From: Escherichia coli
GTDB taxonomy: Bacteria > Pseudomonadota > Gammaproteobacteria > Enterobacterales > Enterobacteriaceae
Assembly (NCBI RefSeq): GCF_003334335.1
Contig: NZ_QOWQ01000004.1
Length of the DNA stretch: 64,000 nt
Reading direction: 5' to 3' (one strand)
The notes beneath the pieces are model-generated. The model was not told the DNA's origin. It did no database searches and saw only the letters and a program-made list of their open reading frames with translations. The position numbers and the translations under genes were made by a program. Below are positions 42,023-64,000 of this stretch, piece after piece. How positions within the stretch are numbered: position 1 is the stretch's first letter; every line of letters starts with the position of its first letter.

Positions 42023-43170
42023 TGACTGAACAGCGTCCATTAACGATTGCCCTGGTCGCCGGAGAAACCTCCGGCGATATCCTGGGGGCCGGTTTAATCC
42101 GCGCTCTGAAAGAACATGTGCCCAACGCCCGCTTTGTTGGTGTTGCCGGGCCACGAATGCAGGCTGAAGGCTGCGAAGCCTGGTACGAAATGGAAGAACT
42201 GGCGGTGATGGGCATTGTTGAAGTACTCGGTCGTCTGCGTCGCTTACTGCATATTCGTGCCGATCTGACAAAGCGTTTTGGCGAACTGAAGCCAGATGTT
42301 TTTGTTGGTATTGATGCGCCTGACTTCAATATTACTCTTGAAGGTAACCTCAAAAAGCAGGGTATCAAAACCATTCATTACGTCAGTCCGTCAGTCTGGG
42401 CGTGGCGACAGAAACGTGTTTTCAAAATAGGCAGAGCCACCGATCTGGTGCTCGCATTTCTGCCTTTCGAAAAAGCGTTTTATGACAAATACAACGTACC
42501 GTGCCGCTTTATCGGTCATACCATGGCTGATGCCATGCCATTAGATCCAGATAAAAATGCCGCCCGTGATGTGCTGGGGATCCCTCACGATGCCCACTGC
42601 CTGGCGTTGCTACCGGGGAGCCGTGGTGCAGAAGTTGAAATGCTTAGTGCCGATTTCCTGAAAACGGCCCAGCTTTTGCGCCAGACATATCCGGATCTCG
42701 AAATCGTGGTGCCACTGGTGAATGCCAAACGCCGCGAGCAGTTTGAACGCATCAAAGCTGAAGTCGCGCCAGACCTTTCAGTTCATTTGCTGGATGGGAT
42801 GGGCCGTGAGGCGATGGTCGCCAGCGATGCGGCGCTACTGGCGTCGGGTACGGCAGCCCTGGAGTGTATGCTGGCGAAATGCCCGATGGTGGTGGGATAT
42901 CGCATGAAGCCTTTTACCTTCTGGTTGGCGAAGCGGCTGGTGAAAACTGATTATGTCTCGCTGCCAAATCTGCTGGCGGGCAGAGAGTTAGTCAAAGAAT
43001 TATTGCAGGAAGAGTGTGAGCCGCAAAAACTGGCTGCGGCGCTGTTACCGCTGTTGGCGAACGGGAAAACCAGCCACGCGATGCACGATACCTTCCGTGA
43101 ACTGCATCAGCAGATCCGCTGCAATGCCGATGAGCAGGCGGCACAAGCCGTTCTGGAGTTAGCACAATGA
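42022..43170 (+). CDS. lpxB: Lipid-A-disaccharide synthase
   Basis: 382-aa ORF; ATG overlaps the lpxA stop by 1 nt. Confidence 0.95.
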
Positions 43171-60295: not shown

Positions 60296-61319
60296 AACCC
60301 AGTACCTCTACTTTTACATGGTGTTCCTGCAGCCAGGCAATGGCGGCTTGCGTATCTTGTTGTGTGCCGTGCATTTCAGTCAGCATGATGCCGAACTTAA
60401 CGCCACCGGCGTAATCCATCTGCGCGCTAATAATGTTGTTGTTGACGTTGAAACGACGCGCGGTTTCAGAAAGCAGTGGGGCATCGACCGATTGACCGGT
60501 AAACTCCAGACGCAGCATCGGCACGCAGTCAGTAAATGGCTCCGCTTGCAGACGTTCCTGGTAATCTTCCGGGATATCCAGATGCAGGGTCGACTGAATA
60601 AACTTCTGCGCCAGCGGCGTTTTCGGATGCGAGAACACTTCACTTACCGTGTCCTGCTCGATCAGTTCTCCATTGCTGATGACCGCCACGCAATCACAAA
60701 TGCGCTTCACAACGTCCATTTCGTGGGTGATCAACAGAATCGTCAACCCCAGACGGCGGTTGATGTCTTTCAGCAGTTCGAGAATAGAACGTGTCGTTGC
60801 CGGGTCCAGCGCGCTGGTGGCTTCATCACACAGCAATACTTTGGGATTGCTGGCTAACGCACGGGCAATTGCCACACGTTGTTTCTGCCCACCGGAAAGA
60901 TTCGACGGGTAGCTATCATGCTTATCGCCAAGACCAACCAATGACAGCAATTCCGTCACGCGACGTTTGACCTCGTCTTTCGGTGTGTTGTCCAGCTCCA
61001 GCGGCAGAGCCACGTTGCCAAAAACAGTACGCGAAGAGAGCAGGTTAAAATGCTGGAAAATCATACCAATCTGGCGGCGAGCTTTGGTCAACTCGGATTC
61101 TGACAGCGTGGTCAGTTCCTGGCCATCGACCAGCACGCTACCCTCGGTTGGGCGCTCCAGCAGGTTTACACAACGTATAAGCGTACTCTTACCCGCGCCT
61201 GAGGCACCGATAACGCCATAAATTTGTCCAGCTGGCACATGCAGGCTGACGTTGTTCAACGCCTGGATGGTGCGGGTGCCCTGGTGGAACACTTTGGTGA
61301 TATTCGAAAGTTTTATCAT
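60288..61319 (-). CDS. metN: Methionine import ATP-binding protein MetN
   Basis: 343-aa ORF with Walker [10 protein letters not shown] and signature LSGGQKQR; its stop overlaps the metI start by 8 nt. Confidence 0.95.
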
Positions 61320-61401
61320 TGATTATTTATTATCGTCATTAAGTTAGTCGTGGCATCTCGAATGCCTGAAACGGGCAACGCCGTCAATGAAATGGATGTT
61401 A

Positions 61402-61425
61402 AGGCATCCAGACGTCTAAATCAAT
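61402..61425. promoter_or_regulatory. MetJ operator (met box) in the metN promoter region
   Basis: Perfect AGACGTCT at 61410-61417 flanked by degenerate 8-mers, about 90 nt upstream of the metN start. Confidence 0.6.
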
Positions 61426-61506
61426 CAGGTTTATGCGAAGAGCACTTTCTTGCAGGTCGAAACATGCGATACTAGCGTCACATGCCTTATTAAGGAGCTA
61501 TAAAAG

Positions 61507-62082
61507 GTGGCGAAGAGCGTACCCGCAATTTTTCTTGACCGTGATGGCACCATTAATGTCGATCACGGCTATGTCCATGAGATCGACAACTTTGAATTTA
61601 TCGACGGTGTTATTGACGCCATGCGCGAGCTAAAAAAAATGGGCTTTGCGCTGGTGGTAGTAACCAACCAGTCTGGCATTGCTCGCGGTAAATTTACCGA
61701 AGCACAGTTTGAAACGCTGACCGAGTGGATGGACTGGTCGCTGGCGGACCGAGATGTCGATCTGGATGGTATCTATTATTGCCCGCATCATCCGCAGGGT
61801 AGTGTTGAAGAGTTTCGCCAGGTCTGCGATTGCCGCAAACCACATCCGGGGATGCTTTTGTCAGCACGCGATTATTTGCATATTGATATGGCCGCTTCTT
61901 ATATGGTGGGCGATAAATTAGAAGATATGCAGGCAGCGGTTGCGGCGAACGTGGGAACAAAAGTGCTGGTGCGTACGGGTAAACCTATTACGCCTGAAGC
62001 AGAAAACGCGGCGGATTGGGTGTTAAATAGCCTGGCAGACCTGCCGCAAGCGATAAAAAAGCAGCAAAAACCGGCACAATGA
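61507..62082 (+). CDS. gmhB: D-glycero-beta-D-manno-heptose-1,7-bisphosphate 7-phosphatase
   Basis: 191-aa ORF with GTG start and HAD motif FLDRDGT. Confidence 0.93.
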
Positions 62083-62100
62083 TTAAAAGATGAGCGGTTG

Positions 62101-62160
62101 AAATAAAAATGCATTTTTCCGCTTGTCTTCCTGAGCCGACTCCCTATAATGCGCCTCCAT
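62101..62160 (+). promoter_or_regulatory. rrnH P1 promoter with AT-rich UP element
   Basis: UP element aaataaaaatgcattttt; -35 ttgtct (62123-62128), 16-bp spacer, -10 tataat (62145-62150), GC-rich discriminator gcgcctcc. Confidence 0.8.
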
Positions 62161-62232
62161 CGACACGGCGGATGTGAATCACTTCACACAAACAGCCGGT
62201 TCGGTTGAAGAGAAAAATCCTGAAATTCAGGG

Positions 62233-62260
62233 TTGACTCTGAAAGAGGAAAGCGTAATAT
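62233..62260 (+). promoter_or_regulatory. rrnH P2 promoter
   Basis: -35 ttgact (62233-62238), 16-bp spacer, -10 taatat (62255-62260). Confidence 0.75.
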
Positions 62261-62300
62261 ACGCCACCTCGCGACAGTGAGCTGAAAGCCGCGTCGCAAC

Positions 62301-62313
62301 TGCTCTTTAACAA
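62301..62313 (+). promoter_or_regulatory. rrn leader boxA antitermination element
   Basis: tgctctttaacaa matches the boxA consensus. Confidence 0.8.
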
Positions 62314-62444
62314 TTTATCAGACAATCTGTGTGGGCACTCGAAGATACGGATTCTTAACGTCGCAAGACGAAAAATGAATACCAAGTCTCAAGAGTGAAC
62401 ACGTAATTCATTACGAAGTTTAATTCTTTGAGCATCAAACTTTT

Positions 62445-63986
<1,542 letters not shown>

Positions 63987-64000
63987 CCTTAAAGAAGCGT

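Follow-up and report, generated by a model that had tools for sequence, protein, structure and literature searches.

The region upstream of the 16S gene analysed here is almost certainly where the rrnH operon of E. coli begins, directly after gmhB, in a phylogroup-A strain that is near K-12 and has ST167-like clinical isolates as its closest relatives ("the window" below means the whole stretch of DNA that was analysed, 64,000 nt in length). Nothing contradicts this explanation. The rrnH promoters, the antitermination leader and the 16S start are textbook E. coli biology and were already known; few sequences in bacterial genetics have been studied as closely as the rrn P1 and P2 promoters, the antitermination leader and rrnH itself, and nothing in the window goes beyond what is known of them. 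Coordinates of all features are collected in Table 1.

Because gmhB ends at 62082 and the synteny matches that of strains MG1655 and LAU-OXA, the operon can be assigned to rrnH. The base right after the gmhB stop codon is 62083, and both metN and gmhB are found upstream of the operon. In the annotation of MG1655 the order is gmhB-rrsH-ileV-alaV-rrlH-rrfH-aspU-dkgB (rrnH operon NC_000913.3 223409-229004), and downstream in LAU-OXA it is 16S-tRNAIle-tRNAAla-23S-5S-tRNAAsp-dkgB, as in MG1655. An earlier note made from the sequence alone had named the operon rrnH, a label borne out by metN and gmhB on the upstream side and by the order of genes downstream in LAU-OXA. Since MG1655 and LAU-OXA share this layout, the content beyond the window end can be predicted with confidence, though it lies outside the window. 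The arrangement is nearly universal in the species: the last 2.6 kb of the window (61400-64000) were matched in all 5426 of 5426 complete E. coli genomes, at least 80% of this segment was covered at one place in 5397 of the 5426, and the junction between gmhB and the rrn operon was present in 5416 of them. Among the matches listed, gmhB and a 16S gene were annotated under the match, with gmhB directly upstream in every genome of that list.

As for the strain itself, MG1655 161327-225326 is the collinear counterpart of the whole window at 99.95% identity (28 mismatches and 2 gaps, i.e. 30 alignment columns), which makes the organism a close relative of K-12 and not K-12 itself; the window tail has no exact counterpart in MG1655. 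Over 25 kb the genomes that match best come from clinical isolates of phylogroup A, among them LAU-OXA, WCHEC005784 and one strain called ST167, and LAU-OXA differs from the window by a single mismatch over the last 25,000 bases. Twenty-one single-base differences from MG1655 fall at 1852-56572, upstream of gmhB and outside the rrn region, and the A at 42225 is absent from MG1655 as well as from LAU-OXA, the closest genome checked.

Table 1. Features at the 5' end of the rrnH operon, in window coordinates (numbers with a minus sign count from the P1 start for P1 elements and from the 16S 5' end for leader elements)
Feature	Position	Strand	Sequence and evidence
gmhB (yaeD) ORF	61507-62082	+	Stop TGA 62080-62082; same strand as the rRNA operon
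Upstream FIS-like candidate activator site	62018-62032	+	GGGTGTTAAATAGCC; 10/11 motif match; centred at -134 of P1, inside gmhB
FIS-like site I (candidate)	62081-62095	+	GATTAAAAGATGAGC; 10/11 motif match; centred exactly at -71 of P1; invariant in 12 strains
P1 UP element region (putative)	62099-62121 (about -60 to -38)	+	TGAAATAAAAATGCATTTTTCCG; A+T-rich; same columns as the rrnB P1 UP element
P1 -35 hexamer	62123-62128	+	TTGTCT; promoter scan; aligned with TTGTCA of rrnA/B/C/G; invariant in 12 strains
P1 -10 hexamer	62145-62150	+	TATAAT; 16 bp after the -35; identical in all seven MG1655 operons
P1 discriminator, G+C-rich	62151-62158	+	GCGCCTCC; aligns with GCGCCACC of rrnB P1
P1 transcription start (predicted)	62159	+	A; placed by alignment with the +1 A of rrnB P1
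P2 promoter	62233-62260	+	-35 TTGACT 62233-62238, 16-bp spacer, -10 TAATAT 62255-62260; scan; aligned with rrnB P2 TTGACT/TATTAT
boxB-like hairpin	62271-62297	+	GCGAC...GUCGC; MFE -13.5 kcal/mol, z = -2.2 against shuffles; just 5' of boxA
Leader (5') strand of the predicted leader-trailer helix, the RNase III processing stem of pre-16S	62299-62356 (-146 to -89)	+	Cofolding
boxA	62301-62313 (-144 to -132)	+	TGCTCTTTAACAA; identical in the seven operons and in 12 strains
boxC	62326-62335	+	TCTGTGTGGG; exact match to the boxC string in PMC10250234; invariant across the operons and 12 strains
16S rRNA gene (rrsH locus), complete, 1542 nt	62445-63986	+	Rfam RF00177 positions 1-1533 of 1533, 1577.5 bits, not truncated
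16S-23S spacer (trailer), first 14 nt	63987-64000	+	CCTTAAAGAAGCGT; operon cut by the window end; continues in LAU-OXA and MG1655

The 16S gene starts with AAATTGAAGAGTTTGA and ends with TGGATCACCTCCTTA, and its anti-Shine-Dalgarno 3' end (CACCTCCTTA) is present. It had been described as complete, with a length of about 1542 nt as the check on its limits; the full-length match to RF00177 bears out the description, the length is 1542 nt, and the boundaries map exactly onto those of the annotated MG1655 rrsH (223771-225312). The statement that the window stops 14 nt into the spacer proved exact, as did the other coordinates of the earlier note.

It is in the allele carried by this gene that the window departs from the MG1655 locus. 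We observed no differences from MG1655 rrsB or rrsE and ten from MG1655 rrsH, the latter at 16S positions 1002, 1006, 1010, 1019-1023, 1038 and 1120 (window 63446-63482 for 1002-1038, and 63564 for 1120), at each of which the window has the rrsB-type base. Likewise, at position -30 of the leader the window has a G (62415), where MG1655 and W3110 have an A. The comparison with the other rrn copies that had been proposed as a way of detecting operon-specific 16S variants therefore turned up none, the gene being identical to rrsB and rrsE and devoid of the bases specific to MG1655 rrsH. The ten variants that distinguish rrsH lie in the head domain (h33) and have been linked to stress-response phenotypes (Kurylo et al. 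2018, PMC6312700). When 11 gmhB-linked loci were sampled, five were of the H-type (MG1655, W3110, JNE181771, O157:H7 SS17 and U1) and six of the B-type (BH100N, 22AR0322, H2, CAVP776, J53 and LAU-OXA). In a species-wide search that considered the best match per record only, a 100-nt H-type h33 segment was found at an identity of at least 99%, in one copy or more, in 3279 of 5433 E. coli records, and was absent from 2148 of the 5433. Polymorphism of the 16S allele at the rrnH locus among E. coli strains is known, and because of it the label "rrsH" does not imply the variant ribosome treated in work on heterogeneous ribosomes.

The likely cause of the B-type allele at rrnH is gene conversion. 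Specifically, gene conversion has probably homogenised rrnH to the rrsB-type, at least from leader position -30 to 16S position 1120, in the ST167-like phylogroup-A lineage. If this is true, an operon that has been reported as relatively up-regulated under nutrient limitation encodes no head-domain variant ribosome in such strains, and these would be natural knock-outs for testing the variant-ribosome hypothesis, i.e. the proposed tuning of the RpoS stress response.

One may also consider a technical explanation, namely that the B-type 16S at rrnH is an artefact of assembly or polishing, short reads derived from the other six copies having replaced the true rrsH-type variants. We consider this unlikely, even though the K-12 lineage offers it some support: over 61400-64000 the K-12 derivatives J53, NCM3722 and MFDpir match the window at 100% identity, and a direct reading of J53 showed the B-type with a G at leader -30 (NZ_CP028702.1 619014-621814), whereas the MG1655 and W3110 references are H-type at rrnH. 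Since J53 is derived from K-12, such an allele difference within one lineage could be technical. However, many independent ST167-like assemblies match the window over 25 kb that include the 16S gene, the 2148 records with no H-type h33 anywhere indicate that genuine absence of the H-type is common, and there is ample documentation of gene conversion among rrn copies (PMC6312700). The split between J53 on the one hand and MG1655 and W3110 on the other may itself stem from gene conversion among the rrn copies of laboratory lineages or from a minority variant lost in polishing.

Another suspicion, that a different rrn copy (such as rrnE or rrnD) was mislabelled as rrnH, or that misassembly across the rRNA repeats placed a chimera beside gmhB, could draw on the same 16S gene, which equals rrsB and rrsE and not MG1655 rrsH, and on the stretch from the P1 -10 to boxB, where 151 of 156 positions are identical to rrnE. 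Yet this possibility is hardly credible, as the UP tract, the -35 and the sequence upstream of them are unique to rrnH and run continuously into gmhB, the same gmhB junction recurs in 5416 of 5426 complete genomes, and the B-type allele occupies the gmhB-linked locus in six of 11 independently assembled genomes. The promoter region of rrnH is, judging by its alignment, a mosaic. The part upstream of -37 is peculiar to rrnH, the other operons being about 52-58% identical there; between the P1 -10 and boxB the region agrees with rrnE as given above, with rrnD at 134 of 157 positions, and with the A/B/C/G type at only about 100 of 164; and from boxA to the 16S gene the window and the seven operons of MG1655 differ at one base only.

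A relaxed-threshold Rfam search over 61900-62480 gave one extra match only, to RF02849 (Ysr197, "Yersinia sRNA 197") at 62076-62323, with 145 bits, below the gathering score of 167 (E = 5e-37). Since this match takes in untranscribed DNA that lies 5' of the P1 start, we read it as homology to the rrn promoter and leader and not as a separate sRNA gene. The family RF02849 appears to model rrn promoter/leader sequence, rather than an independent sRNA.

The promoter elements were located in an alignment of the window with the 480 nt that precede the 16S gene in every one of the seven operons of MG1655, whereby P1, P2 and boxA fall column for column on their counterparts in MG1655 rrnA/B/C/D/E/G. 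The P1 discriminator is identical in rrnE and rrnD, and the P2 start would lie a few bases downstream of its -10, at about 62267 (+ strand). In 12 rrnH loci sampled from diverse strains across the species there is no variation in either pair of hexamers, in the discriminator or in the +1 base, and the substitutions fall in the P1 spacer, the interval between P1 and P2, and the boxB loop. A generic sigma-70 and terminator scan of 61000-64000 scored 10 of 12 consensus matches for the P1 hexamers and 9 of 12 for those of P2, and the total of hexamer sites was not above that of shuffled sequences (5 sites versus 2.7 +/- 1.5); the case for the promoters therefore rests on homology and conservation, not on the scan. 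The alternative that the P1 and P2 hexamers arose by chance and that rrnH depends on transcription reading through from gmhB is very improbable, for although the scan is no richer than shuffles and a + strand terminator-like site is absent between gmhB and P1, the elements are exactly collinear with rrnB P1 and P2, they are invariant across strains while the adjoining bases vary, and a promoter fragment of about 500 bp from rrnH gives reporter expression (PMC4696680). Tandem P1 and P2 promoters occur in all seven rrn operons, together with a UP element and FIS sites, and the activity of the rrnH promoter has been measured (PMC4696680). In that work, in which about 500 bp were cloned per rrn promoter region, rrnH was the weakest of the seven in fusions, and its promoter region was one of three bound by H-NS (Maeda et al., PMC4696680).

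Upstream of the -35, the A+T content reaches 74% over 62099-62121 and 81% over -60 to -40. Against the SELEX-type UP consensus this tract matches 6 of 14 positions, like rrnE, whereas rrnB matches 11 of 14. Its only variation in the 12 strains is one substitution, G to A at -38. A UP element of rrnH P1 is thus plausible by position and composition, with no strong match to the consensus. For FIS we scanned with the motif GNNYAWWWWWTRNNC, allowing no fewer than 10 of the 11 specified positions to match and requiring the terminal G and C, which gave only 26 matches in the 64-kb window (a density of 4e-4 per base), the two candidates just upstream of P1 among them. The candidate site I, at -71, overlaps the gmhB stop codon TGA (62080-62082). 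Applied to the other operons, the scan placed the centre of a site at -71 in both rrnA and rrnC, and in rrnB at -143; these are the positions classically assigned to FIS sites I and III. FIS footprints and the effect of the UP element were reportedly measured on all seven rrn P1 promoters by Hirvonen et al. in 2001. Gel shifts on an rrnH promoter fragment gave the number of FIS sites previously reported (Maeda et al., PMC4696680). What is said here of UP and FIS draws on the motif scans, on PMC4696680 and on established knowledge.

These results allow the promoter claims of the earlier note to be weighed. Its reading of P1 (-35, -10 and discriminator), of P2 and of boxA holds, each having been located correctly by homology to the other six operons. 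Its UP element is in the right place and rich in A+T, but with few consensus positions. Its description of the architecture in 62083-62444 as "complete" stands for P1, P2 and boxA and is slightly overstated otherwise, because the candidate FIS sites at -71 and -134, at or beyond the 5' edge, extend upstream of 62083.

Judged by these candidate FIS sites, the 3' end of gmhB may also serve the rRNA promoter as its upstream activating region, and since the sites overlap the end of the gene, promoter and coding sequence would constrain each other. In some strains (L013, L016 and CAVP776) gmhB is annotated as 573 and not 576 nt, with TAA-TGA in place of CAA-TGA; the change falls at window 62076-62082, just 5' of FIS-like site I. 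From the gmhB stop to the UP tract there are just 16 bp, and the terminator scan found no + strand terminator-like hairpin between the stop and P1 (62083-62122), so that gmhB transcripts probably read into the rrnH promoter. Four terminator-like sites were recorded in 61000-64000, all of them on the - strand, and they look incidental.

Just after P2 the boxB hairpin, boxA and boxC follow one another in 5'-to-3' order. BoxA is the NusB/NusE-binding element of the rRNA antitermination complex. The boxB loop varies between strains and between operons. Strains H2 and CAVP776 have an rrnE-type boxB loop (gtgcgctaaag--cgcg) at rrnH, aligned to 62278-62292, which is consistent with gene conversion between the rrnE and rrnH leaders. 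The positions of boxA and boxC in the window agree with those of PMC10250234, where the boxA deletion spans -147 to -133, the key U is at -141 and the boxC string is UCUGUGUGGG.

Cofolding of the leader with the trailer of LAU-OXA predicts 49 pairs, between leader -146 to -89 and trailer nt 1548-1599, and boxC belongs to the 5' strand of this leader-trailer helix. The predicted 49-bp duplex spans the segment (-113 to -89 with 1548-1570) that is experimentally essential (PMC10250234). Only eight of the 49 predicted pairs have their trailer base inside the window, and therefore the window end truncates the 16S processing helix as well as the spacer tRNAs and the 23S gene.

From homology to rrnB and established knowledge one may propose how this region would work, and for the rrnH copy in the window we infer start sites, FIS binding and Nus-factor binding by that homology. 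Transcription would begin at two tandem sigma-70 promoters, at A 62159 in the case of P1, which would be activated as the alpha C-terminal domains of RNA polymerase touch the UP tract and FIS bound further upstream (site I at -71). The P1 open complex would be short-lived through the combined effect of the consensus -10, the sub-optimal spacer of 16 bp and the discriminator rich in G+C, and this in turn would render it responsive to the initiating NTP (ATP, given the +1 A) and to ppGpp/DksA. P2, about 108 bp downstream of P1, would provide basal expression. The boxB-boxA-boxC leader would recruit NusB/NusE, NusA, NusG, S4 and SuhB into the rRNA antitermination complex, nucleated by boxA in the nascent RNA, and the boxC region would later pair with the trailer 3' of the 16S to form the leader-trailer helix, at which RNase III would cleave to release pre-16S.

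Among known systems, the experimentally characterised reference for rrn promoters is rrnB P1/P2. Its P1 shares with the rrnH of the window the TATAAT hexamer, the 16-bp spacer, an 8-bp G+C-rich discriminator, the +1 A and an A+T-rich tract at -40 to -60, and differs in its -35 (TTGTCA, against TTGTCT in the window) and in the discriminator (GCGCCACC, against GCGCCTCC). The UP sequences of the two also differ. Further down, the P2 -35 is TTGACT in both, the P2 -10 of rrnB is TATTAT where the window has TAATAT, and the P1-P2 interval of the window is shorter, of the E/D type; boxA, boxC and the leader of rrnB are identical to those of the window. The similarity to rrnE extends from the P1 -10 to boxB (151 of 156 positions), with the same discriminator and the same P2, whereas the upstream activating region, UP element and -35 of rrnE are unrelated to those of the window, and its boxB loop differs by a 2-nt deletion and substitutions. 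The variant "rrsH" allele of Kurylo et al. 2018 (PMC6312700) occupies the same chromosomal locus, in the rrn operon farthest from the replication origin, but the window has none of its ten variant nucleotides and is rrsB-type over positions 997-1044. MG1655 rrnH shares with the window the locus, the neighbouring genes, P1, P2, boxB, boxA, boxC and the boundaries and length of the 16S gene; the promoter interval 62083-62414 is identical in the two, and the 11 differences between the operons comprise one leader base and ten 16S positions.
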